64,000 bases of DNA, from the NCBI GenBank assembly GCA_963700635.1, contig CAVOYH010000004.1:768001-832000 (forward strand), written 5' to 3'. Each line of letters opens with the position of its first letter. Position 1 is the stretch's first letter. Both the position numbers and the translations under genes were made by a program. The notes under the pieces are model-generated. The model searched no databases, was not told where the DNA came from, and saw only the letters and a program-made list of their open reading frames with translations. Positions 7,234-25,988 of the stretch are shown here, one piece after another. Origin of the DNA: an uncultured Bacteroidota bacterium. Lineage in GTDB: Bacteria > Bacteroidota > Ignavibacteria > UBA10030 > UBA6906.

Positions 7234-7971
7234 ATGGCGCGGAAAGCGGCAACAGAACGGAGCGTGGATCTGGGGTTTGACCGGGATGAAGTAAAGACCC
7301 TCCGGGACCGGATCGCGCAACGGATACGGGCATCGATCATTGACGGGCGGATCACGCCCGGGCAGCGGCTCGCGGAACCGGACCTGTCGCTGCAACTGGG
7401 TGTCAGCCGTACGCCCCTGCGCGAGGCGCTTCTGCAGCTTGATTCCGAAGGGTTTGTGCGCGTCACGCCCCGACGCGGGGCGGTGGTAAGCGCGCTTTCC
7501 CATGAAGATGCGCACGATACCTATCAGGTCAAAGGTGTGCTCGAGGCCTTCGCAGCGCGGCTGGCGTGCGAGCGGATGACTGCAGCCGAGCTGAAACAGC
7601 TGCGCGGGATCCACGACCATATGCGCCGCATCGCCGCGGCCCGCACAAAAGACGTCAAAGCCATCCTCCAGAGTAACGCAGAATTCCATCAGGCCCTCAG
7701 CGACGCGTCGGGGAACGAAAAACTTGCCGGCTACATCCGTTCATTGCGCAGCCAGGCACTCCGCTATAATTATATCTATCTGTCCGTCCTCTCACATCTT
7801 GCCACCTCGATGAAGGAACATGACCGTATCCTTGCCGCACTCCAGAAACGTGACGGTGCGGGCGTGGAACGCCTCGTGCGCGCCCACGGCGAAGCAGCAG
7901 GGAAGGCGCTCTGCGCCTACATCGACCGGCATGCGGGAGGGAACCATGTCAACGATCGTCACGGGAGTTGA
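7234..7971 (+). CDS. GntR family (FadR subfamily, FCD domain) transcriptional regulator
   Basis: PGQRLAE..LSLQLGVSRTPLREAL wHTH; NAEFHQAL...EHDRI FCD domain. Confidence 0.92.
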   Translation: MARKAATERSVDLGFDRDEVKTLRDRIAQRIRASIIDGRITPGQRLAEPDLSLQLGVSRTPLREALLQLDSEGFVRVTPRRGAVVSALSHEDAHDTYQVKGVLEAFAARLACERMTAAELKQLRGIHDHMRRIAAARTKDVKAILQSNAEFHQALSDASGNEKLAGYIRSLRSQALRYNYIYLSVLSHLATSMKEHDRILAALQKRDGAGVERLVRAHGEAAGKALCAYIDRHAGGNHVNDRHGS

Positions 7972-13962: not shown

Positions 13963-14853
13963 TCTTCTTGACAGTGTAACTCGCGTGCCGCAACCGGGCC
14001 TTCGGCGATGCCCATCCCATTCTGAGGTAGCAGCCAAGGGCTGGAAGGTGTCCACGCCGAACCCTACATTTTCCCCGTGTGGATGAGAACTGTGACAGAC
14101 AAACAGTGTCTGCCTTCGCTGCGGATCTCAGCTCACCCCGGCGGCTTGAGCCCCCCTGAATGCAAGTGTTGACAGTCCAAGCTAGACTCATTAAAGTTCC
14201 TTATAGCTTCAAAATTTACCCCTGATGGAGATCGGGATCTCGTAAGGATTTTGAAATCAAGAGTAAGCTCCGGTATATTATCAGTGTCTCATGTCATATG
14301 CGTGATGGTTCTTGGGTCAGAGGGGAACGAAAGTAGCACGCATAGTCTTTTCGGGACTTATAAGGAAGAAAGTTGCTCAAATTCTTGAGTACAAGGTGAG
14401 CATCCCCCCGTTCATTCGGTCTCCCCAAAAGGCTAATATATCCTGGGAGGCGGGTCCACATGGAAGAACATCGAGCGCGGCAGCGACTAGAACGGCAAAT
14501 CATCCATAATGCTGGGGGGCTATTAGCCTAAGAGTGTCGTAGTGAGTCGTCAGCGTGATGGGATCTGGACGTGGCTTCGTGCAACTCCATCGGTACGATC
14601 GGGAGTTTGCTGAGAATGTCGACCAAGCGTTTTCGGACAAAAGGAACCCTTCTGGTGAAGGAAAGATGAAGTACAATGCTATCGACATGTACCGGAACGA
14701 TCCATCAGCGCAGCTGGGAGGACGGGTCCGGCAGTATCCCGGAGTGGGCATTATGCGTGGCAGAACCAACGGGAAGGGAAAGGTTAGCTCGATGACTGGG
14801 TCGGCTGAGTGAGATTGATGTCCAGATAAAACCAAGGCGCTGGTTTAATCCTG

Positions 14854-14875
14854 TGGGTACACCCACTTTCTTTTG
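14854..14875 (+). terminator. possible weak intrinsic terminator
   Basis: GTGGG-TACA-CCCAC followed by TTTCTTTT. Confidence 0.35.
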
Positions 14876-15411
14876 CACTTTCTGATAAATGTGACTACAT
14901 TCGCGGTATCTGATATTTTGCCTCTATCGAGTGTTATTCCTTCGAGCCCAAGTTAGCCAAATGCAACGCATTAAGTAGACATCGACTTGGCTCGTTCCCC
15001 ATGAGAAGGAGAGAATGTGGCACATGTTGCCATCCCTCGCCTTGAACGTTCGAGACGAAGGTCTCCCGATGAACGCTCGCCTCCTAAACCGGCAGCACAA
15101 TAGTTTCAAGCTGATATCGGACCTCCGCTGCCAGTTGAAATGCACCACCCAGCATTGGCACAGGAGAATCCGCCACCTAGAAAGGGGAAAATCTTAAATT
15201 TTAGGTGCAATTGAATATTCACGCCGAGATAGCCCCAGTCGACAGACATTAGCCCAATTCCTCTATTCGGGCTCCCCAATCGGCTCTGATATTCGTAAAA
15301 ATCAGGAAACCAGTGTAAGATATTAGAAGGGGCGTTGATTTTTCCTCGGCGGATTGGGAGAGCTGTAATATTCGGTCACAGAATTTTCATCTGTCGATTG
15401 GGTCTTGGTGG

Positions 15412-15943
15412 ATGCGAAAAAGCGACCCGGATGTACTAGACACTTACGCAGACTTGATTGCAAAAGCCTATCGGCGCTACAAAGGCTTCTGGATCAATCT
15501 GGCGCGCACCTCCTTGGTAACCCAAGAGGATGGTGAAGATATTGTTCACGGGGTCGTTGGATCGATACTGGCGAGACGCGATATCGGCTTCGAATCGCTC
15601 GAACACGTCCGAAACTACGCTCGCGCGGTCTGTTTTGAACCGTGCCATCCAAATTAGGCAGAGGGCGGTACGAGTGTGTGAATTTGAAGAAGAAGTTTCG
15701 ATCGAAATTGCACCCTTGGAGCAGGTGGAGATTCTTGAGAGGCAGGAGGAGCGTGCTGCGTTACGGGCAGTGATTAATGGGTTGAGTCGACAGGACTATG
15801 AAATCATTAAATTGAGATTCTTTTCCGGACTTACATTTATCGAGATTAGCAGGATGCTTCAAAAGCCAGTATCGACCCTCAAAAGCAGGGAAGACGCTGC
15901 TTTGCGAAGGATCAGAAAGGATATGCAAAAGCGTGCCGGATAG
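15412..15943 (+). CDS. ECF-type RNA polymerase sigma factor (frameshift near 15620)
   Basis: Region 2 (EDGEDIVH...RNY|LARSVLNRAI) and region 4 (LSRQDYEIIKLRFFSGLTFIEISRMLQKPVSTLKSR) lie in different frames. Confidence 0.85.
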
Positions 15944-15980
15944 TAGCGTGGCCTTCAATCTTTGACCCGGAGTCTTCCTG

Positions 15981-16778
15981 ATGAAAAGACATGGCAAATC
16001 TGTTGTCAAGTCATATTCTCTTGTAGATTTTGCTCGCGGACAACTAACCTGCGAAGAATCTCTGGAAATTCTGGGAATTCTCGAGGAAGATTCGACTAGA
16101 TCAGAGGAGCTCGAAATTGTGCTCAGAATGCTTGAGCCCAATTCGGCTGTTGGGAGCTCGGTCATAACCGATGACGAAAAGAAGAAGGCAGGACGCAAGG
16201 CCGTCCGAGATCAGCATACTGGCTTCGAGGTAATAGTCCGTAGTGCTGCGCTCGCAATCCTCGTTGTGGGAACGGCGCTCTTGGCGCAGGAATTTGGAAA
16301 GCCCGAAGGGTTCAATCTTCTTCACGTAAATCCAAATGACATTGACATCAGAACCCGGGGTGAACCCGAAAAGATTGCAGAGATCGCATACGCCTTAATA
16401 TGCGAAGGTGAGAACAAGCGTGCTATGGAACTAGTCGATTGGAGTCTGAGTGCACTTCCGGAAGGTGATGGACGCGCCCATTCACATCTCTTGAAGGGCG
16501 GTCTATTGTTGATGAAGTCGGAAATCTATTACCTGGCAATTTTTTCCCATTTCGATTCGACGCTCGTGCGGCAGGGCTTAAACGAATTAGATCTCGCTCG
16601 CAGGATGTCAGGTCAGAGGAGAGTTATCGAGGGTGCAATTTGGTTGAGCATCAAAGGGAATCTGATGATTGGCGACAGATTCAAGGCGTTGGAACAAATC
16701 GAGGCGTTAGAGTCGAGTGGGGGTGTCCGACATGCGGAAGCAAGTCGGCTAAGGCACTTACTCGATGATTGGGAATGA
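15981..16778 (+). CDS. putative membrane-anchored anti-sigma factor
   Basis: Directly after the ECF; N-terminal LVDFARGQLTCEE helix bundle (degenerate zf-HC2-like, no HxxxCxxC), one TM (~aa 84-102), helical TPR-like C-domain. Confidence 0.65.
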   Translation: MKRHGKSVVKSYSLVDFARGQLTCEESLEILGILEEDSTRSEELEIVLRMLEPNSAVGSSVITDDEKKKAGRKAVRDQHTGFEVIVRSAALAILVVGTALLAQEFGKPEGFNLLHVNPNDIDIRTRGEPEKIAEIAYALICEGENKRAMELVDWSLSALPEGDGRAHSHLLKGGLLLMKSEIYYLAIFSHFDSTLVRQGLNELDLARRMSGQRRVIEGAIWLSIKGNLMIGDRFKALEQIEALESSGGVRHAEASRLRHLLDDWE

Positions 16779-16811
16779 CCACGTATTGAAAATCAGAAGG
16801 GTGCACTTGCC

Positions 16812-19800
16812 ATGAGGATCCCCTTAGCATGGGTCTGCCTAGTCCTCTCGGTTCAAATTGGTTCCGCAGCCAGCAAAATTGAGGCTGACCTACATGTTCA
16901 GCTTCGACGGATAATCGGAAAGGGTCATTACGATGAGGCTCTCCGACGTTGTATGAAACTCCTTATTCAACAACCCCAAACAGCTCAGCTCTATGAGATG
17001 AGTGCAGAGATTGGACAATACGGCGGTCAGTTGCCTGAGGTCAGCGCGTTTCTCAGAGAAAGAATTCGTGCCGGTCAAAACGTGCCATATGCATTGTTTG
17101 GGTGTGGGCAAGTCTATTTGAGGGAGGGAAAATGGTCCAATGCCATGCTAATGTTTGAAAGGGCGCAGTCGTTCGATTTGCAGATACCCTCTCTTTATGC
17201 AGGCATGGAACTAGCCTTCGAGAAACTCAACGGCGTGGATGCAGCGATTGAGTACTATCTCGCGTCTTCGCAGCGTGATCCGCGCAATGCAGGGATCTGG
17301 TATTCACTCGCCCTCGCTTATTGGAGCCGAGCCGATCCCGAAAATACTTTATCAGCAATCGATGAGTCCTTGAGACTTTCTGAAAATGAGCCAAGGTTTC
17401 GTCAACTTAAGGCTGGAGCCATGTACACTTGGTTGCTCGATGATCAATCCTTCAAAGCTGCTACCCACGAGATCCAGGCGGCGATAGCCCTTTGTGACTT
17501 CGATGGGGCTGAGTTTGTAAGGTGGTGTCTGGTAGACGGTTTGTCCTCGCAAGGAGAATGGGATCGGGCGTGTGCCATCGCGAAGGAAGCCAATAAGAGC
17601 GTTCGCGAATTCGGGCAAGTTAAGTGGACAGCGCATATCCACCTCGCGTTGGCGGTAAGAGAGCTAGCTCTGGGGGATCTCCATGGTTCATTAAATCATG
17701 CTGATTCTTCAAGTAAATATTTCAGTATGGTAAATGATGTCGATGGACTTCTTTCGAGTCGGGCCATTAAGATTGGAATACTTCGGGAATCTGGATCCGT
17801 TCAAACCGGACTGAAATACTGCTTCGAGGTATTCTCGGATCTTTCCGAAAGGAGCGACTCACGCCTTTGGGGCGGTGCATTCATCGACGCTGCATGGACG
17901 TTCGCTGAGATCGGAGCATTCCGGATCGCTTTGGCGATGGGTATAGAAGCCCAGCGAATTCTCCAGCGGTGTCTCTACGCAGATTATGATCAGGTTAGAT
18001 TGTACACTGCACTTGGACTGATTCACCAGAAAATCGGTAATCTGCCTCTCGCTATTCGATACCAGCGCCGGGCTCTCGGAATCGCCGAAGCTACCAATGC
18101 TCCACGAAATGCGCTATCTACCTGCGTAGGTCAATTGGCCGTCTCATTACTCTTGTTTGGAGACACGCTTGCTGCACGGACGCATTTTCGACGACAACTC
18201 AATCTTGCAAGAAAAGAGGGAGATCCAGGAGAAGAGAAGAAAGCACTGTATCATCTGGCAGAGCTAGATCTCGGGATGGCCTTGTACGGAGCCGCAAGAA
18301 GGAAAATCGAGACGGCCATGGACATTTCTCGAAAACAGAAAGACGATCGGACACTGAAGCAGTGTTACCTTCTCCTCGGCAGGATCGCGGAAAAGGAGGA
18401 AAAGAAGGGTGAAGCAATGTCGCACTACGGCCGCTCATTGAAGTATTTCAATGAGGAGAGAGGACGAAGACATCTCTTCATGATGACGGTGGAGATGAAG
18501 GAATGGTATCTCACTCAACATGAAGAAATAGTAAATGCACTCTGTCGAGTGGGTCTCATTGATGAAGCTTTTGCCTTGATTGAGAGTGTGCGCTGCGACG
18601 CTCAATACAGGTATCACTCTCGTTCATCTGAATCCAGGCGTGAACTTCGTCGTATTGAGGGCACTAGCGATGTAGAACTCATTATCTCCTCGTACAGGAA
18701 AAGTTGTCGCGACATTTCTACTAAAATGGAGGAAGACAAGATTGATTGGAGTCTACTTCTACCCGCGCTGAGGAAGAACCTTGCGATTGTTGACACACTT
18801 CACCAACTTGAAGAGGTGCCGGGTAGGATCCCAGAATTGCCTGCTACCAGAAACGACTCACGTGAAATCATCTCGCACATTCGGAATCGAATTCTGCAGA
18901 AGGGGGATGCACTTGTTGAGTTCTGGGTGGGGCATGTATCGACGGAGCGGTTTCTTTTGACTCGTGATACTCTTGTACATCATAGTTTGATGTTAGAGAA
19001 GGCGAAGTTGAATAAGTGGGTCATTCCCCTATTGGACCATTTTGGCGGAGAGGGGAGCATAAGCGATTCCTACCGAAGAGAGCGTCCCTCCGGGCAGTAC
19101 CAGGCGGAGCTTGTCGCTATTTCAGATTTGCTGCTGGGGGGTCTTCAGAACTTCCTTCTAGAAAAAGGCAACTTGATAGTGGTTGCAGGTCAGCCACTTG
19201 CGAGCTTGCCCTTCGAAGGAATGGTTTTGAGAACCGCGTCGGGGCTGAGGCAGTTGGTCGAAGAATTTGCGATATCGTATGCCCCGTGCATCTTTGCTTT
19301 GGAACCGCTTCCTGACTTGTCAACATTTGATCCAGCCGATCTTCTTGTGCTGGCTAACCCGCTGCCAGACAAGATCGTCGGAATAGATGCAATGATCCAA
19401 GCGGATTCAATTCGTTCGGGTGCTATGACCGATGGATATCGACTAGAACTGCCGGCAGCAGTAAGAGAGGCAGAGAGAATTCGCGCCGTGTTCGGATCTA
19501 CGAGTGTGATAAGGCTTGGACGTGAGGCCTCTGAAGGAGTCATGGCACGCGAATCAGCGCATTTTCGGATTATCCATATCGCTGCACATTCCACGTCACG
19601 CAAGAAGGTAAGCGATAGGCATGCAATCATCTTGTCTCCTGACGAAGAGAATGATGGGATCCTCGAATACAGGGAAATCGCAGCGCTGGATCTCAGAAGT
19701 GACTTGGTTGTGATCACAGGCTGTAGAGCAGGGGAGCCCAGCAGGGCGAACGATTGGGGAAGTCTCGCGGAGGCGTTCATTGAAGCTGGAGCCTCGAGTG

Positions 19801-20129
19801 TTATCGCGACACATTGGGATGTTGAAGATGTGGTTGCTGACAGGCTCTTTGGGCTATTCTACAGTTACCTAAGATCGGGAGAATCGCGTGCGCGCTCTCT
19901 CCAGTTGGCGAAACTATCTCTAATGAAGGATGGATTTACCGATGTGCGACTTTGGTGTGGTTTTCGACTATTCGGAAGGCATCACCCGATCGCTTGGTCA
20001 AAAAGGGATGACGGGGATGCTGTTGAATATCTTCACGCGGCTGCCGTCGCCTCTTTGCTGCTAATGATGGCCTCAGTGGTATTCTACTCGATCCGAAGAA
20101 AGAAAAGGAAATGTCCCTCGGCATCGTAG
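16812..20129 (+). CDS. TPR-repeat CHAT-domain (caspase-like, clan CD) protease with signal peptide and C-terminal TM anchor
   Basis: TPR helices, LASLPFEGM, IIHIAAHS (His), DGILEYREI, LVVITGCRAG (Cys), AGASSVIATHWDVED; C-terminal hydrophobic helix followed by RRKKRK. Confidence 0.9.
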   Translation: MRIPLAWVCLVLSVQIGSAASKIEADLHVQLRRIIGKGHYDEALRRCMKLLIQQPQTAQLYEMSAEIGQYGGQLPEVSAFLRERIRAGQNVPYALFGCGQVYLREGKWSNAMLMFERAQSFDLQIPSLYAGMELAFEKLNGVDAAIEYYLASSQRDPRNAGIWYSLALAYWSRADPENTLSAIDESLRLSENEPRFRQLKAGAMYTWLLDDQSFKAATHEIQAAIALCDFDGAEFVRWCLVDGLSSQGEWDRACAIAKEANKSVREFGQVKWTAHIHLALAVRELALGDLHGSLNHADSSSKYFSMVNDVDGLLSSRAIKIGILRESGSVQTGLKYCFEVFSDLSERSDSRLWGGAFIDAAWTFAEIGAFRIALAMGIEAQRILQRCLYADYDQVRLYTALGLIHQKIGNLPLAIRYQRRALGIAEATNAPRNALSTCVGQLAVSLLLFGDTLAARTHFRRQLNLARKEGDPGEEKKALYHLAELDLGMALYGAARRKIETAMDISRKQKDDRTLKQCYLLLGRIAEKEEKKGEAMSHYGRSLKYFNEERGRRHLFMMTVEMKEWYLTQHEEIVNALCRVGLIDEAFALIESVRCDAQYRYHSRSSESRRELRRIEGTSDVELIISSYRKSCRDISTKMEEDKIDWSLLLPALRKNLAIVDTLHQLEEVPGRIPELPATRNDSREIISHIRNRILQKGDALVEFWVGHVSTERFLLTRDTLVHHSLMLEKAKLNKWVIPLLDHFGGEGSISDSYRRERPSGQYQAELVAISDLLLGGLQNFLLEKGNLIVVAGQPLASLPFEGMVLRTASGLRQLVEEFAISYAPCIFALEPLPDLSTFDPADLLVLANPLPDKIVGIDAMIQADSIRSGAMTDGYRLELPAAVREAERIRAVFGSTSVIRLGREASEGVMARESAHFRIIHIAAHSTSRKKVSDRHAIILSPDEENDGILEYREIAALDLRSDLVVITGCRAGEPSRANDWGSLAEAFIEAGASSVIATHWDVEDVVADRLFGLFYSYLRSGESRARSLQLAKLSLMKDGFTDVRLWCGFRLFGRHHPIAWSKRDDGDAVEYLHAAAVASLLLMMASVVFYSIRRKKRKCPSAS

Positions 20130-20154
20130 GCTGACTCTGGGTATCCAGTTTCAC

Positions 20155-21103
20155 TCACCCCAGCCCAATCGTAAACGGCGCAAGGGCAAAGCCAACTACT
20201 AAGCATCCACAAACAAAACCACCCTACCTGCATCCGCGTGTGATCCAACGGCGCATCATCAGGCAATACCATCGCCCCACGCGTGCGCCGCTCAAAAAAG
20301 ATGAACAAGATCACCGCCCAGAATAACCAACCCGTCCAACCCCACTCGTCACTCATCCCGATCAACGGCAAAAAACCCAATAACCCCAATCCGGCTAACA
20401 CCCCGATCACCACCCGGCCTATGACCACCGACTTCCCCCCAAACATCGCCCGCACAATGTGACCACCATCCAACTGACCAACTGGTATCAAATTCATCGC
20501 CGTCACCAACAACCCGAACCACCCTACACATAAAAATGGATAATGATACATCTCGTTCATCGGCGGAATAAATGCACCGGGTGCCGGAAGGATCGCCTCC
20601 AACCCCGCATACACAAAGTTTCGCCCAAAAGCTAAACCCCCCGCCGGGATCTGACTCAATCCCACATACTCCGGATGTATCTCGTATAAATAGTCAATCG
20701 ATGGCAATGTCAGAAATCCGATCACCAGGTACGCAACACTCACAACAAAACCTGCAATCGGTCCGGCCGCGCCAATGTCCAGTAACGCCCGACGACTCTG
20801 AACCGGCGACCGTAACTGAATTACCGCCCCTAATGTGCCGAACGGAAAAAGACCCAAAACAAAAGAAGGGAAGGGAAGGAAATACGGCAGGGTGGCCTCT
20901 ACCCCGTGCCGCTTCGCCGCAAGATAATGACCCATCTCGTGACTCAATAACATCAATGACAACAGCACGGCGTACGAAATGCCGTACCCAAAATTTGTCA
21001 GCTCTATCGGATTTTTGTTCAACCACGCCACCCCCGCAAAAGCCATGGTCAGAAAGGTCAGAACAAAAAGAGAGGCATGAACAGCAATAGTTCTAATTCT
21101 CAC
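20155..21103 (-). CDS. site-2 protease (M50 family intramembrane metalloprotease); probable frameshift near 20200
   Basis: HEMGH, FGTLGAVI, DIGAAGPIAG, NLIPVGQLDGGH; the hydrophobic end VVGFALAPFTIGLG* is in another frame with a stop at 20155 (as-read ORF runs to 20084). Confidence 0.9.
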
Positions 21104-21125
21104 GTGCCCTGTAGTATACTGAGGA

Positions 21126-21204
21126 TAATAAAAGAGTAGACACTACGCATAAAGGAGAGACCGCCTTTTGAGCTTCTCATAACTTTCTGCATAGTGCCTA
21201 CTCT
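21126..21204 (-). terminator. long hairpin terminator downstream of the repeat-peptide gene
   Basis: Minus strand AGAGTAGGCACTATGCAGAAAG ... CTTTATGCGTAGTGTCTACTCT forms a 22-bp stem with two G-U pairs and one mismatch, followed by TTTATT. Confidence 0.75.
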
Positions 21205-21247
21205 ATGCCACTCACACCACCAAACAACGACCCGCCAGATAGTAGAA

Positions 21248-21508
21248 TTACGGGCGCGGCGAATCGGGGATTACTGGTACGCCGGAAGTGCGTGGGCGCG
21301 GGGAATCCGGAATCACGGGAACACCGCTCGTCCGCTCTCCAACCACCGGGCGCGGGGAATCGGGAATCACAGGCACTCCGCTGGTCCTTGGACGCGGGGA
21401 ATCGGGAATCACAGGGACTCCACTGGCAAACGCTATGGCTGCGTTTGTAGCGGCTACCGCCACTACTGTGATTACCAGTGAACGAAACCGACGAGCGGTC
21501 TTTGACAT
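21248..21508 (-). CDS. 86-aa secreted precursor with signal peptide and four SGVPVIPDSPRP repeats
   Basis: GGAGGAG RBS just before the ATG; MSKTARRFRS-LVITVVAVAATNAA-IAFA signal peptide; four aa-identical cores differing only by synonymous changes. Confidence 0.9.
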   Translation of the reverse strand: MSKTARRFRSLVITVVAVAATNAAIAFASGVPVIPDSPRPRTSGVPVIPDSPRPVVGERTSGVPVIPDSPRPRTSGVPVIPDSPRP

Positions 21509-21794
21509 AACTCCTCCGTGAAAGAGAAAAGTGACGCTTAGAAAAAAGGTTGATGTGAGTGGTCTTCGCATACCCAGACTCCGCCGCACAATGCGGATGT
21601 ACTCCACCTCAGTACAGGCCCCACCTCAAAATCGGGGACCCTCATAAGAGAGGTGCGTGACTCTGGTCTGTCAATGAAAAACAGGTTTGATGAGGTCAAC
21701 CGGTGAAGCAGGAATCAGAAAAGACACTCTCCCGAATGTCCTCCCCCCGGCTTGACTCATCTGGGGGTGTCTAATAACCTCCATCTGGGTGAGA

Positions 21795-21823
21795 AATATA
21801 GACAGGTCAATGTGCATTGTCAA
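21795..21823 (-). promoter_or_regulatory. sigma70-type promoter for the peptide gene
   Basis: TTGACA(21823-21818)-17 bp-TATATT(21800-21795) on the minus strand. Confidence 0.7.
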
Positions 21824-21884
21824 GTTTTTTTTACAGTTTCGCTTATTTTCTGCGTATAATCGAGGTCGTTTTGGGCGTTTTTTC

Positions 21885-21900
21885 TGGCACTAAGCTTGTT
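21885..21900 (+). promoter_or_regulatory. possible sigma54 -24/-12-like element
   Basis: TGGCAC-TAAGC-TTGTT; spacing is correct but the -12 is GT rather than GC. Confidence 0.3.
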
Positions 21901-21974
21901 ACCTGCCTAACCCTGCGATATCTGTGACCCAAAGCACAGCATTACGGTATTCAAAAAAATTTGCGGTTTTACTC

Positions 21975-22003
21975 TTGACAGGCACGAATCACCTGATTAT
22001 ATT
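21975..22003 (+). promoter_or_regulatory. sigma70-type promoter for the membrane protein/regulator operon
   Basis: TTGACA(21975-21980)-17 bp-TATATT(21998-22003). Confidence 0.75.
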
Positions 22004-22029
22004 GATCCACGTATTCTGACATATAGAAC

Positions 22030-23217
22030 ATGAACAGATTCTACATATCGGCTCGGAAGATCTTCTGGTTCTGGATCACCTTTGTGGCGATCTTCACCGG
22101 GGCGCTATGGTTCCTGCCGCATAGCAATTTGGCCCCGTCAGTTTTTACGAGTGTCGTCGCACAAGCGCTTCTCTTCCTGGTCGCTCTCGCTATTGTCCGG
22201 CATGAGAGCAACACTAAGAATAGATTCGTGTTTGCGAACTTTGCGCTTTTGTTCTCCGTTTCACTGGCTGCGGCTATCGCTCCCTTTATCGGACCAGGAT
22301 ACTCTCTTTTTACCGATTTACCTTATGCTCAATACTATTTTAACAATTACCTGCTGTTTGGCGCCTACGGCTTCCTTCTCGCGTTCGCAATAGTCTACCT
22401 CACCGTCGATGCGCTGTTCCGGGAATTTAAGACGGTCCAGAAATATCTCATCGCTTTCTCCATCGTGGGCATGTTCTTCGGACTCTATTTCCATGGCTTC
22501 CTCATCAACCCGAAGTACGCCTATACCACACAGGATGTCCTGGACTGGAAGACGATGGACAACGCTGCACGCATATATGAGGCGGAACACGGCGTAAAAC
22601 CCGATCCAGCCCAGCTTGCAGCCAGCACTGACATGTACGTCTGGAAGAACGGCTATTCGGTCGCTACGCTCCATCCCGATGCCAGAGATGCTCGCGTGGC
22701 TGAACTCTTTCCGTATCTGCACGACAAGAACTATAATGTGCTGCTCTCGAAACCCCTCATGTCCTACCTGATCTCAATGTCCGTGATCGGGATCGGCTTT
22801 ATCCTCCTTTTCTTCGGCTATCAGTACATGAAGGATCCGCCCCAGGGGGCGTATATCGAGAAGATGGTGTTCCTGTTCCTCCTCTTCTGCAGCATGGAAA
22901 TTCTCCATGGCTGGAGCGCCATCAACGTGCTCGAGTGGCAGTCGTTTTCTGAAATCGTGGGCGTCGGACAGTATGCTTCCGTCGGCGTCCTGCTCCTTAT
23001 CGCTGTTGTCTTCGGGCTCCGGCTCCGCTTTATCATGTCAGTCAAAGGGGAGTTCTACGAGCAGGAGCTCGAATCAAGTCCGACCGGCATTACCCGTTGG
23101 AGAGATGCGCTGGATACGATGGTTGTGGAAAGTTTCTTCAACCGAAAAGTCGTACACGGCCGCCTCTTTGCAACAACCGGCGGTAACAAGAACGATTCAA
23201 ATCCAACAACCAGGTAG
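22030..23217 (+). CDS. uncharacterised ~8-TM membrane protein with a large extracytoplasmic loop
   Basis: Eight hydrophobic segments; positive-inside loops (RHESNTKNR, REFKTVQK, RLR) put the ~85-aa loop after TM5 outside and the C-tail inside. Confidence 0.8.
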   Translation: MNRFYISARKIFWFWITFVAIFTGALWFLPHSNLAPSVFTSVVAQALLFLVALAIVRHESNTKNRFVFANFALLFSVSLAAAIAPFIGPGYSLFTDLPYAQYYFNNYLLFGAYGFLLAFAIVYLTVDALFREFKTVQKYLIAFSIVGMFFGLYFHGFLINPKYAYTTQDVLDWKTMDNAARIYEAEHGVKPDPAQLAASTDMYVWKNGYSVATLHPDARDARVAELFPYLHDKNYNVLLSKPLMSYLISMSVIGIGFILLFFGYQYMKDPPQGAYIEKMVFLFLLFCSMEILHGWSAINVLEWQSFSEIVGVGQYASVGVLLLIAVVFGLRLRFIMSVKGEFYEQELESSPTGITRWRDALDTMVVESFFNRKVVHGRLFATTGGNKNDSNPTTR

Positions 23218-23250: not shown

Positions 23251-24285
23251 ATGGATCCGAAAGAACATAAGAACAACGGCAACGACGGGGGGAAGGGGAA
23301 ACAGCAGTTTGAGTACCCTATCGTCGGAAAATCGCGCGCTGTTGACCAGCTTGTAAAACAGATCGCCGTCCTGGCGAAGTCACGCCGCGATATCGTGATT
23401 ATCGGCGAAGCCGGCATCGGCAAGGGCGCCGTGGCCAAGAATATCTATATCAACGGCAAGAATATCGGCCACGACGGACCGTTTATGTCCATCAACCTTT
23501 CGGTCGTGGATGACCGCGAACTGGAACTCCTGCTCTTCGGACAGGACCGGAACGGCCAGGGCGTCGAGCCCGCCGATACCCAGTCCGTCTTCGAACAGGG
23601 ACACCGCGGCACACTCCTGATCGAGGACCTGGAAGAAGCCAGCTTCCGTAATCAGATGAAAGTCCTGACGTTCATGAACGAACGGAAGGCCCGGAAGAAC
23701 AGGGGAGAGTCTGGCGGACCTATTGACCTGCGCCTGATCCTGACCATGAAGGGCGAGCCGTCTGTGCTCGTGGACCAGCGTACACTGCTGGATGAGCTCT
23801 ACGCCAAGATCAAGGACTTCGAAAAGATTGACATCCCCCCGCTGCGCCAGCGGCAGGAGGATATCCCGCTCCTTATCAAACACTTCACTTCCGAAATCTG
23901 CCGCGACCTCGGCGTCGCTGACCTTACGATCGATATCAACGCCGTGGATGTGCTCGTGCGACAGCCCTGGCGCGAGAATGTCCGCGAACTCAAAACCGTG
24001 ATCGATAAGTGCGTGCTCTTCTCCACCGACGGCCGGTTTATGCTCCCGCCGGAACTGGTTGACGAGAAGACGGAAGTCGTGAAGATGATCAACAATATCA
24101 AAGCCGGCCAGGAGTTTGTGCTGGACCGCTCTCTGGACGTGATCGAGAAGGGCATTATCGAACGGTCACTGGAGAAGTTCGGATTTAATCAGTCCAAAGC
24201 GGCGCAGTTCCTGGGCATGACGGAACAGACGTTCCGCTACAAACTGAAACGGCTGGGAATCGCAAGCGCCCGCGCGCGCTCGTAG
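23251..24285 (+). CDS. atypical NtrC/sigma54-interacting-family regulator (AAA+ and Fis HTH, no sensor domain, no GAFTGA)
   Basis: IVGKS, GEAGIGK, ELLLFG, IPPLRQRQEDI, WRENVREL, NQSKAAQFLG HTH. Confidence 0.88.
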   Translation: MDPKEHKNNGNDGGKGKQQFEYPIVGKSRAVDQLVKQIAVLAKSRRDIVIIGEAGIGKGAVAKNIYINGKNIGHDGPFMSINLSVVDDRELELLLFGQDRNGQGVEPADTQSVFEQGHRGTLLIEDLEEASFRNQMKVLTFMNERKARKNRGESGGPIDLRLILTMKGEPSVLVDQRTLLDELYAKIKDFEKIDIPPLRQRQEDIPLLIKHFTSEICRDLGVADLTIDINAVDVLVRQPWRENVRELKTVIDKCVLFSTDGRFMLPPELVDEKTEVVKMINNIKAGQEFVLDRSLDVIEKGIIERSLEKFGFNQSKAAQFLGMTEQTFRYKLKRLGIASARARS

Positions 24286-24360
24286 ACCGGCTGATAGACG
24301 CAGGCGCAGCTTTACGGATGGCGCAAAGAGAGGTTACCCTTTCTTTGCGCCATTCGCGTT

Positions 24361-25466
24361 CTAACCCTGCACCCGGCCTTTCCAGATTACCTTGCTGCCT
24401 GTCAGGACAATCGGAGGGAACACCAGCACGTAGAAGAAGTAGTAGAGTTCGTAAAACAGGAAACACGGGCAACAACCCCCACCGCCTGAATCGCGCGATG
24501 ATCGGCAGGCTCAGCAGCAGATCGGCCCCCACCTTCAACCCCAACGCGACCAGCACACCCTCTGTATTCATAGCCAGCCCCACAAGAATCAACAGATGGA
24601 ACAACCAGGCGCCGGCAAAGATGAGAATACTCCTGGCATCCATCCCCTTACCTCCCGTAAACCAGCGCTTCCGCTGACGGAACAGGTCCCTCCAGGTGGG
24701 ACAGGGTTCACTCTCCACAACGGTCGCAAGGTCCATCGGAAAACGGGCTTCGTACTTCGTGCGGGAGGTGACGGCGTGAAACAACGCGTAGTCCTCTGTG
24801 ACACTGAACGGAATACCATCGTATCCGCCCGACTGCATCGTAGGCCGCACGGCGGACCGTAAAATTTGTGCCGACAGCCGTGACCGGGATACCCAGCCGC
24901 GTGGTGGCCGAAGCAACGGAAAACAACACAAACCAGTCCATCGTCTGGATTGCTTCAAAAAGGTTCTTATACCTGATAGCGGTAAAGCCCGGAACAAGCC
25001 CGATGGTCTCATCAGTATAGTACTTTACCGTTTCCTCCACCCAGGCCGGCGGCACGGCGCAGTCGGCATCGGTCATCAACAGGATCTCTCCCGTGGAGGC
25101 GGCAATCCCCTGTGCAACGGCGTTCGTTTTGCCCATCAGGTGGCCCGTACCGGGGGTGGCATGGACCGTCCGGATCACCGGAAAACGGCCTGCATAGTCT
25201 TCAATGATTGCCGGCGTGGCGTCCGTTGAGCGGTCGTTGATGACGATCACTTCGAGCAAGTCACGCGGATAGGTCAGGCGCGAGATCGCATCCAGGCAGT
25301 TCCCGATGTTGGCTTCTTCGTTCCGTGCGGCGATGATCACTGAAACTTTAGGCCGGTATTTTCTGTTTTGTGTGTAGCGAGCAAACAACGCAACAACCGC
25401 AAGGGAAACCATCCCTGCGGCGTACAGAGTGCCGAGAATCAGAAGCACGACGTCAAGCACGGACAC
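24361..25466 (-). CDS. GT2 family membrane glycosyltransferase (apparent frameshifts near 24835 and 24452)
   Basis: SVIIAARNEE, NDRSTD, TDADC, TED, RQRKRW motifs and a terminal VIWKGR spread over three frames. Confidence 0.82.
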
Positions 25467-25622
25467 CTTACCGTTATTGAGGACAAAGGGGTAAAAAAGA
25501 ATACTGAATTCCCGTTCTGGAAGCAAGGCGGGGATTTTGCACTTTCCCGATGTTTGTGTATATTAAGGACATCGTTTTCCTGTCACCGGCACTAAAAATC
25601 CACAAATTCTCAAGGAGGACCC

Positions 25623-25988
25623 ATGAAACTATCATCATTATTCGCCCTCGCGGCGATGCTCCTCATCTCCACGGTTGCCTTCGCGCAGGTCGTGGAAGTG
25701 GGCGAATTTGCTGCAACCCCGGGGAGCGAAGGCTACTCGCTGCAGGGCGGAAAAGGCGAACGTACATTTATCTCGGTTGTTGGATTCGAAAAATCCTACA
25801 GCACCCCACCCCAGGTGGTCGTGTCTCTGGCCGGCTATGATGCCACCGCCGGAACCGACAACACCATCCGGGTGCAGGTGAGCGCGACAAAAGTCACGAA
25901 GGCCGGATTCGTCCTGCGCGTAAAAACCTGGGGCGATGGGAAGGTTGGCTCTGTGTGGGGGAACTGGGTGGCCGTGGGTGTGAAGTAA
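25623..25988 (+). CDS. secreted H-type lectin domain protein
   Basis: Signal peptide (AFA); FEKSYSTPPQVVVSLAGYD...VTKAGFVLRVKTWGD...WVAVG matches the discoidin/HPA H-type lectin pattern; GGAGG RBS. Confidence 0.8.
   Translation: MKLSSLFALAAMLLISTVAFAQVVEVGEFAATPGSEGYSLQGGKGERTFISVVGFEKSYSTPPQVVVSLAGYDATAGTDNTIRVQVSATKVTKAGFVLRVKTWGDGKVGSVWGNWVAVGVK

Follow-up and report, generated by a model that had tools for sequence, protein, structure and literature searches.

A multi-core peptide precursor in a conserved four-gene cassette of Ignavibacteria-like bacteria is a candidate peptide signal

Ribosomal peptide signals are a hallmark of quorum sensing in Gram-positive bacteria and, to our knowledge, are nearly unknown in Gram-negative ones. 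In the Agr and ComCDE cassettes, a precursor is encoded together with a membrane protease or processing protein, a polytopic sensor and a transcription factor, and in eukaryotes yeast alpha-factor and insect apidaecin are made from secreted precursors that carry multiple copies of a peptide. Multi-domain precursors of the plant CLE and CEP peptides are likewise described as multi-copy secreted precursors (for example, CLE in PMC2254619). In the Rap–Phr systems of Bacillota and phages, tandemly duplicated pheromones lie within propeptides, and one account reports maturation by extracellular proteases and ties the duplication to diversification of peptide–receptor specificity (PMC11343458). M50 proteases of the Eep/RseP type mature peptide pheromones in Firmicutes, with enterococci and streptococci as the cases presented in three reports (PMC10202637, PMC3150281, PMC11323143). 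Here, we analyse a 64,000-nt stretch of DNA (hereafter, the window) from an uncultured bacterium of the class Ignavibacteria, phylum Bacteroidota (contig CAVOYH010000004.1), which encodes an 86-residue precursor with a predicted export leader and four identical 12-residue cores. We find that the gene is real, that every copy of the core is under very strong purifying selection and that the surrounding cassette is conserved. The precursor is a good candidate for a Gram-negative peptide signal, and its interpretation as a pheromone, reached by inference, is the best available. Coordinates are positions in the window, and the minus-strand precursor gene is read from 21508 down to 21248. The four cassette genes are as follows.

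20084..21103, minus strand: peptidase M50 (site-2-protease family), 339 amino acids, 144 nt downstream of the peptide gene
21248..21508, minus strand: multi-core precursor, 86 amino acids, ATG at 21508 and TAA at 21248–21250, from the open reading frame (ORF) and its translation
22030..23217, plus strand: polytopic membrane protein, 395 amino acids, of no known family, the proposed receptor
23251..24285, plus strand: regulator with an AAA+ domain of the sigma-54-activator type and a helix-turn-helix (HTH) domain, HTH_8, 344 amino acids (Pfam PF00158, PF25601 and PF02954)

With Rap–Phr, as the cited account presents it, the locus would share a leader of Sec type and, behind it in a single propeptide, multiple copies of a short peptide that stays unmodified. 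However, Phr peptides have 5–6 residues, are re-imported through Opp and meet cytoplasmic receptors built of tetratricopeptide repeats (TPR), whereas the peptides here would have 10–20 residues, are proline-rich and end in P[RK]P. The host, moreover, is a diderm of the Fibrobacteres–Chlorobi–Bacteroidetes (FCB) group, the partners are an eight-helix protein, an AAA+/HTH regulator and an M50 protease, and there is no sequence relationship. Membership of Rap–Phr/RRNPPA was accordingly rejected: neither a TPR receptor nor Opp is linked to the gene, and the only TPR protein nearby is a CHAT protein that is linked in 3/15 loci. The likeness to eukaryotic precursors comprises a signal peptide (putative in the present family), identical short peptides, short spacers, a last copy at or near the C terminus and codons that differ between copies; with CLE it extends to proline-rich cores of around 12 residues. 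Those precursors have defined dibasic or subtilase sites and secretory-pathway enzymes, whereas the family described here has neither a uniform site nor homology to them, and the resemblance in design is most likely convergent. A prohormone of the Kex2 type, such as alpha-factor, was rejected on the spacers, which in the window are RT, VVGERT and RT; dibasic pairs are not the rule in the family.

As in the Eep/RseP cases, to the extent that the cited reports describe them, an M50 intramembrane metalloprotease is associated with a small, presumably exported candidate signal. In those reports, the protease is a housekeeping RseP homologue and the pheromone is a hydrophobic leader or C-terminal fragment; here, by contrast, an extra M50 protein without a PDZ domain is encoded beside the precursor, and the repeated, variable part is not hydrophobic. 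Agr and ComCDE offer the same four-part logic, divergent transcription units and a lineage-specific peptide, but the locus has no AgrB, histidine kinase, response regulator, thiolactone, double-glycine leader or ABC exporter, its candidate sensor has no kinase domain and its regulator is an AAA+ protein. The locus would best be described as a known design, the peptide signal cassette with a multi-copy precursor, made of unrecognised parts in a diderm lineage.

Translation of the precursor gene confirmed the layout proposed in a first-pass annotation of the window: an 86-residue ORF in which a 28-residue leader ending in AFA precedes four identical cores, the last of them directly at the stop. 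The order is leader MSKTARRFRSLVITVVAVAATNAAIAFA and then SGVPVIPDSPRP-RT-SGVPVIPDSPRP-VVGERT-SGVPVIPDSPRP-RT-SGVPVIPDSPRP-stop, with the following elements.

21513..21517, minus strand: Shine–Dalgarno sequence GGAGG, 4 nt 5′ of the ATG
21425..21508, minus strand: leader, residues 1–28, with a basic n-region KTARRFR, a hydrophobic stretch, a conserved T-N and a c-region ending in A-F-A
21389..21424, minus strand: core 1, SGVPVIPDSPRP, from the translation
21347..21382, minus strand: core 2, SGVPVIPDSPRP, preceded by the spacer RT at 21383–21388
21293..21328, minus strand: core 3, SGVPVIPDSPRP, preceded by the spacer VVGERT at 21329–21346
21251..21286, minus strand: core 4, SGVPVIPDSPRP, preceded by the spacer RT at 21287–21292, with serine encoded by TCC and abutting the stop

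A purine-rich Shine–Dalgarno sequence precedes the same ATG in all 16 genes printed for comparison (16/16). Each core contains one Asp and one Arg and is therefore about neutral. The 86-residue protein contains no cysteine, and hence none at the +1 position of a lipobox as in bacterial lipoproteins. RT closes every internal junction in the window gene, as the annotation had stated, but this does not extend to relatives, in which the spacers are K, KT, KD, HT, longer or absent.

The four cores are the same peptide written in different codons. Across copies 1–4, serine is AGT/AGC/AGC/TCC, glycine GGA/GGA/GGT/GGC, valine GTC/GTG/GTT/GTA and proline CCT/CCT/CCC/CCA; on checking, the codon differences reported earlier for these residues, including the AGY-to-TCN switch, proved exact. 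Variation affects 12 of the 36 core columns, in 10 cases at the third codon position; the remaining two columns make up the AGY-to-TCC serine switch of copy 4. The four cores are at least 16 substitutions apart, all of them synonymous. When 16 random substitutions were simulated, four identical peptides were kept in none of 200,000 runs, and an analytic estimate for divergence that is synonymous throughout gave p ~2e-9, so that identity of the four cores at this level of DNA divergence is far beyond chance. Tandem Repeats Finder reported no DNA tandem repeat at the precursor gene, which indicates that the copies are too diverged at the DNA level for recent slippage. The earlier proposal that the exact peptide is kept by purifying selection, and is not a product of slippage, is strongly supported and generalises across the family. 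In the window, the wobble-matched antisense frame is also open and reads four identical GRGESGITGTP units. Among homologous genes, however, this frame is interrupted by stops in 7/18, and in one orthologue, L072, the antisense repeats are not identical whereas the sense cores are. The stops and the lost antisense identity exclude the antisense frame, and the sense frame is therefore the one under selection.

Comparisons between genes gave the same picture. The metagenomic orthologues L071 and L072 share 95% and 93% protein identity, respectively, with the window precursor; in the orthologue comparisons the synonymous rate (dS) is 1.2–1.4, which is saturated, and the nonsynonymous rate (dN) is 0.03–0.06, for a dN/dS of about 0.02–0.05. 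When the 48 core codons of the window are compared with those of L071, 26 changes are synonymous and 0 nonsynonymous, and the leader shows 12–15 synonymous against 0–1 nonsynonymous changes between orthologues. In all 15 genomic homologues fetched with their flanks (15/15), the cores are identical or nearly identical in protein and carry many synonymous differences. In a larger set, cores of one gene differ synonymously in 60/60 homologous genes. This set yielded 1332 synonymous and 56 nonsynonymous differences in 3290 codon comparisons, distributed over codon positions 1/2/3 as 131/60/1335, over a segment that was anchored on a repeated hexapeptide and is biased towards identical residues. 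One spurious ORF (L092) was removed from these counts and from the copy-number and unit statistics over distinct sequences given below.

The copies also change together. In L072, core residue 5 has switched from Val to Ile in all four cores, by GTG to ATC in three and GTA to ATT in one. The TCN serine codon specific to copy 4 lies four codons (12 nt) upstream of residue 5 and is kept in the window, L071 and L072. Its retention beside the switch indicates that the copies were not overwritten wholesale; the Val5-to-Ile change was fixed copy by copy, through either mutations in parallel or gene conversion over very short tracts. In eight close relatives, the leader hardly varies and core residues 5–6 are VI, II, ML, IL, MI, AI or TT, each variant being present in all or nearly all copies of its gene. 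Intermediates occur as well (P0003, P0006, P0010, P0019 and L089). In L134, two core types (…TMFQPAPRP and …CNYQWAPRP) alternate within one protein, a pattern that duplication of a block of two units would produce, and L024 has two units with the same DNA sequence; together, these two cases suggest that birth and death of units also contributes. By whatever route the changes arise, each copy is under selection, and copies that agree with one another are favoured.

The precursor belongs to a large, undescribed family in Ignavibacteria-like bacteria. A word-indexed search returned 35 close homologues of 54–124 residues (E down to 3e-41), which are named only ‘hypothetical protein’; one carries the label of an Ignavibacteriae metagenome-assembled genome (MAG). 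A profile built from 44 members and run against 1.84 billion cluster representatives (cut-off E ≤ 0.001) gave 143 protein matches, of which 130 are at most 230 residues long and bear a leader; the 13 that lack a leader or exceed 230 residues were left out of the architecture counts. At least two P[RK]P-terminated units are present in 108 of the leader-bearing matches, and in 70 of these 108 the last nine residues are identical in all units, with all but one unit identical in 18 more. The last P[RK]P is the exact end of the protein in 83/118. Among 229 distinct sequences, copy number ranges from 2 to 7 (mode 4) with a modal unit period of 13 residues, and unit length across the family is 10–20 residues. 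Some precursors have 6–7 units (L134, L141, L130, L117 and L124). Internal P[RK]P motifs are followed by K in 48%, by R in 14% and by S in 13% of cases, with K or R in 288/467, and the K-containing spacer found between cores often stands ahead of the first core as well.

Between lineages, the leader is conserved while the cores differ strongly, as in SGVGTVPDAPRP, RSIGSLPNPPRP, TLDPNNPIYGSPRP, SFAADATIYQPAPRPS and DGGVEIPIPPRP, and the core of the window is species-specific. No Ser, Thr or Cys is invariant across the family cores. Neither Pfam nor NCBIfam has a model for the family, and literature searches on Ignavibacteria peptide precursors and on the PDSPRP motif found no description of it; the motif returned only unrelated matches, one of them on designed proline-rich antimicrobial peptides. 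One member, P0035, keeps the leader and the first core residues and then continues in RRPDDP-like repeats in an apparently shifted frame; it is probably a frameshifted copy.

By eye, the leader divides into n (MSKTARRFR), h (SLVITVVAVAA) and c (TNAAIAFA) regions, with A at −3 and −1. The family pattern is K-R-F-R-S-L-x-I-T…T-N-x-A-I-S-x-A, in which A-I-S/A-x-A is kept, and among the 44 family members R9, N22 and A24 are each at least 90% conserved. By rule of thumb the leader would be a Sec type I signal, with a signal anchor as the alternative reading. A Tat signal was rejected: in place of the RRFRSL of the window precursor, most relatives carry K-R or K-K, and only R9 is near-invariant. A double-glycine leader, as in ComC and class II bacteriocins, was rejected too; the leader ends in AFA in the window and in ISxA in relatives, and there is no ABC transporter among the neighbours.

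The cassette has the same order in 15 loci from several families of the class: the peptide and M50 genes lie on one strand, and the membrane protein gene is divergent and followed by that of the AAA+/HTH regulator. When one genome per species was scanned, 124 loci encoded the membrane protein, and the 80 with listed records are all in MAGs labelled Ignavibacteriota, Bacteroidota or similar. A leader-bearing small ORF lies on the opposite strand at most 900 nt away in 62 of the 64 loci with at least 700 nt of upstream sequence; 61 of these are credible, and some of the starts in this count are internal ones chosen by the script (for example, L082, L086, L103 and L104). The regulator is directly downstream of the membrane protein in 79/79 loci, and the M50 gene is downstream of the peptide gene in 56/59. 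The three exceptions (L110, L120 and L142) form one subgroup that keeps the peptide, membrane protein and regulator and has other genes in the M50 position. Fragmentation of the M50 gene in L032, considered as joint decay with a degenerate peptide, was set aside, the break being a run of N in the record.

Among genomes sampled from the class and phylum, the peptide profile matched 17/301, one of which, G138, was then dropped as spurious (its matches, L014/L037 and L020, are unrelated low-complexity repeats), and the membrane protein matched 19/401. In the window genome’s own family, all of the other sampled genomes matched (8/8). Outside that family, membrane-protein matches occur in three other families of the same order, and the peptide profile also matched G010 and G294, from other families of the class, both of which have the cassette at the matching loci. 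The membrane-protein/regulator pair also has distant paralogues (around 30% identity), which occur without an M50 gene or multi-core peptide in L064, L065, L066 and L067, sometimes with two tandem membrane genes; L067 has a divergent 92-residue ORF (7294–7572) with a family-like leader and no repeats.

The membrane protein has at least 442 homologues, all unnamed and with no Pfam domain, and itself matches nothing in Pfam or NCBIfam. Its AlphaFold2 model (pLDDT 87, pTM 0.83) has eight long helices, with a domain of around 80 residues inserted between the fifth and the sixth, and further helices at the C terminus. No usable match came from the ESM Atlas. Seven-transmembrane receptor folds (GPCR-like and 7TMR-DISM) were considered and gave no significant match in sequence or structure; a GPCR fold is not claimed. 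Conservation is highest on the side predicted to be cytoplasmic, at 0.79, compared with 0.63 for the helices and 0.53 for the parts predicted to be periplasmic. A cytoplasmic loop, KDPPQG, is invariant, and the C-terminal tail is conserved (GEFYEQE…TRWRD…FFNRK). Prediction of a complex between this protein and the mature repeat region scored 0.21 against a mark of 0.32, which is evidence neither way.

The M50 assignment rests on Pfam PF02163 (E 1.1e-21, 77.7 bits against a cut-off of 27.2) and on the HEMGH and NLIPVGQLDGG motifs, which align to the catalytic motifs of the Methanocaldococcus jannaschii site-2 protease (MjS2P, 3b4r) and conform to HExxH and NxxPxxxxDG. The protein has no PDZ domain and scores far below the RseP equivalog cut-offs, and so is not RseP itself; the genome also encodes a separate RseP-like M50 and a third copy, which makes the cassette protein a dedicated extra. 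We found no terminator-like site between the peptide gene and the M50 gene.

The regulator consists of an AAA+ domain, its lid and HTH_8, with only 23 residues before the AAA+ domain and no N-terminal sensory domain. In this it resembles the PspF-like and TyrR-like members of the bacterial enhancer-binding protein family, which combine AAA+ and a Fis-type HTH without an N-terminal sensory domain of their own, and the lack of such a domain suggests control in trans by a partner, as in PspF-like proteins. In contrast to PspF, the GAFTGA loop and the Walker B DE are replaced, and the partner would be a polytopic membrane protein instead of PspA. Aligned to NifA, the window protein has NGQGVE for GAFTGA and IED at the Walker B DE; twelve orthologues are likewise altered, mostly with GVEGLPYT for GAFTGA and with ED or EE at Walker B. 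Such GAFTGA-replaced regulators make up a whole subfamily, always paired with the eight-helix membrane protein (in the same 79/79 loci). A sigma-54-dependent enhancer-binding protein was therefore rejected, AAA+ and HTH_8 being present but the loop and Walker B replaced. The genome does encode sigma-54 (rpoN), but no conserved −24/−12 element (TGGCAC-N5-TTGC) lies upstream of the peptide gene in 16 loci, and the idea of a sigma-54-driven autoinduction loop was dropped because the regulator lacks GAFTGA. Without the sigma-54 contact loop, the regulator probably acts at sigma-70-type divergent promoters, for which there are two candidates.

21795..21823, minus strand: sigma-70-like promoter TTGACA-17-TATATT facing the peptide gene, 11/12 consensus positions, a consensus match only
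21975..22003, plus strand: sigma-70-like promoter TTGACA-17-TATATT facing the membrane-protein gene, a consensus match

Divergent TTGAC[AT]-17-TATATT elements are conserved between the window (21509–22029) and 15 related loci. The peptide-facing element implies a 5′ leader of around 280 nt, or around 200–290 nt across related loci: a like element lies 204–286 nt upstream of the peptide ATG in 10/16 loci and 60–85 nt upstream in 2 more. On the other side, a like element lies 12–89 nt upstream of the membrane-protein gene in 14/16 loci. The implied leader transcript has little sequence conservation, and Rfam gave no match in 20000–23000.

We propose, with confidence a little short of even, that the precursor gives rise to a secreted peptide signal in several copies and so provides the ligand of the conserved four-gene cassette, which also encodes its receptor and regulator. 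The conserved leader would take the precursor across the inner membrane by the Sec route, and signal peptidase, the probably co-transcribed M50 protease or both would release the repeat region and clear away the leader. Endo- and exopeptidases in the periplasm or outside the cell may then cut the short spacers, most of which begin with K or R, to yield several identical peptides of around 12–13 residues, which their prolines, chiefly the C-terminal P-R-P, would shield from further trimming. The divergently encoded eight-helix protein would recognise the peptide and, through its conserved cytoplasmic loops and C-terminal tail, control the co-operonic AAA+/HTH regulator. Specificity may be set by two or three variable mid-core residues, which would drift between lineages in all copies together, as in pherotypes, and multiple copies would raise the yield per translation. 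The annotation had put forward a secreted pheromone or bioactive peptide of an unrecognised type; the absence of Pfam and NCBIfam matches, the species-specific core and the conserved receptor-like, regulator and protease neighbours speak for this, and its uniform processing at RT does not hold across the family. We entertain somewhat more tentatively the fuller proposal of an unrecognised cell–cell system of FCB diderms, in which a Sec-exported multi-core precursor gives proline-capped peptides of around 12 residues, a new class of eight-helix receptor signals without phosphotransfer to an AAA+ factor that lacks GAFTGA, and the cores are pherotypes that coevolve with the receptor, their copies forced to switch together.

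Several observations weigh against a processed signal with this receptor. No uniform processing site exists: some spacers are absent and others exceed 10 residues, and a core may be preceded by K, R, T, D, A or S. No domain for ligand binding or signalling can be recognised in the membrane protein, and Foldseek against the Protein Data Bank returned nothing at E ≤ 0.001, the top hits being GPCRs at E 0.05–0.3 and TM scores of 0.21–0.37. No longer or fused forms of the protein were found, which is weak evidence, and its topology is our own reading of the model and the positive-inside rule. In partial Mantel tests over 16 loci, core distance does not follow the predicted periplasmic parts (partial r 0.10, p 0.24) and instead follows helix distance (partial r 0.56, p 2e-4), a correlation that is likely only phylogeny. 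The three loci without an adjacent M50 gene indicate that the protease is not obligatory in cis. Identical repeats that diverge between species would also be expected of an uncleaved multivalent ligand, and an uncut protein is the alternative that deserves most attention, although we consider it unlikely. Here the precursor, periplasmic or tethered by its leader, would act as a multivalent proline-rich ligand or co-regulator of the eight-helix protein, and the M50 protease would remove it by regulated intramembrane proteolysis in a switch that senses envelope stress or another cue. The unusual conservation of the leader at R9, N22 and A24 fits this, as does its hydrophobic stretch plus c-region of around 19 residues with a conserved Thr-Asn, a feature typical of site-2-protease substrates. 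So do the dedicated extra M50 gene, co-oriented directly downstream without a terminator, the absence of a conserved cleavage motif between cores and the suitability of identical repeats for repeated binding to identical sites. On the other hand, a protein that so often ends exactly at its last P[RK]P and carries a K-containing spacer before the first core fits excision of equal units better, and a copy number of 2–7 among close relatives matches the dosage of a released product. With a cytoplasmic N terminus of only around 9 residues, proteolysis would release no regulatory domain, and the three loci without an adjacent M50 gene count against this reading as well.

The remaining explanations fare less well than either the processed signal or the uncut ligand. 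Released cores could instead be interference or antimicrobial peptides, with the membrane protein providing immunity or export and the regulator controlling production: the PRP triplet recalls proline-rich antimicrobial peptides, multi-copy precursors of which exist in insects, and fast diversification of cores between lineages would also fit an arms race. We regard this as improbable, given that known proline-rich antimicrobial peptides are strongly cationic and the core, for all its PRP, is about neutral, and that the cassette contains no transporter or recognised immunity gene. Its vertical conservation in all eight sampled family genomes is unlike typical accessory bacteriocin loci, and a membrane protein most conserved on its cytoplasmic face and tail, with a regulator always at its side, shows a pattern of signalling rather than immunity. 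A slightly slimmer chance falls to a precursor of the type of ribosomally synthesized and post-translationally modified peptides (RiPPs), whose cores would be hydroxylated at proline, glycosylated or cyclised, for example, the enzymes being the nearby family-2 glycosyltransferase or others encoded elsewhere. Multi-core RiPP precursors do have a leader followed by several cores, the layout seen here, and the glycosyltransferase is near the regulator in 13/15 loci; however, it drifts away from the cassette in more distant loci and is frameshifted in the window. Among the neighbours scanned (sigma factor, CHAT-TPR protein, M50, AAA+ regulator, glycosyltransferase and H-type lectin) there is no recognised RiPP maturase, the cores have no invariant Ser, Thr or Cys to modify across the family, and the leader resembles an export signal more than a leader for recognition in the cytoplasm. 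Membership of the multi-core RiPP classes (cyanobactin, microviridin and similar) was rejected, with no maturase domain in nine neighbours scanned or in the cassette, a search that covered this neighbourhood and not the rest of the genome. Finally, a non-functional sequence, whether a chance ORF, a gene on the antisense strand or a young slippage repeat, could draw on the open and repeated antisense frame of the window and on a peptide without Pfam or NCBIfam matches. This has next to no probability and is effectively refuted by the antisense stops in homologues, the low sense dN/dS at saturated dS, the conserved Shine–Dalgarno sequence and ATG, the hundreds of homologues that share architecture and synteny, and the lack of a DNA tandem repeat.

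If the signal reading is true, communication by peptides would reach into a widespread environmental lineage that is mostly uncultured, and the cassette would hold a new receptor family without known domains, counting its at least 442 homologues, a new way to control an AAA+ transcription factor and a large natural library of probably orthogonal peptide–receptor pairs. Whatever the function, the family is an unusually clean natural case of peptide copies held identical by selection while their DNA is saturated with synonymous changes, and the coordinated amino-acid switch across all copies makes the co-divergence of repeated signal peptides with a partner directly testable.

The G+C content of the window is 0.50–0.51 in 14000–22000 and 0.58–0.61 on both sides. 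Features in this stretch and beyond the regulator are as follows.

15530–15943: fragment of a sigma factor of the extracytoplasmic function type, in the low-G+C stretch
15981–16778: 265-amino-acid protein of no assigned family, in the low-G+C stretch
16812–20129: TPR and CHAT protein, 1105 amino acids, with a signal peptide and a C-terminal membrane helix, in the low-G+C stretch
24185–25526, minus strand: family-2 glycosyltransferase in two overlapping frames, 24708–25526 and 24185–25012, with a C terminus that diverges again
25623–25988, plus strand: secreted H-type lectin domain protein, 121 amino acids (Pfam PF09458, E 1e-16)

The block of sigma factor and CHAT-TPR genes is linked to the cassette in only 3/15 loci. 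Clan-CD proteases often cut after K or R, and the CHAT-TPR protein, which has a signal peptide, was considered as the processing enzyme; it was rejected on that infrequent linkage. The glycosyltransferase is a single ORF of 367–430 residues in relatives, whereas the window copy has one or two frameshifts and would be either a pseudogene or the product of an indel error in the assembly. The H-type lectin gene lies between the glycosyltransferase gene and purF and is kept in the two closest relatives (L027 and L030).

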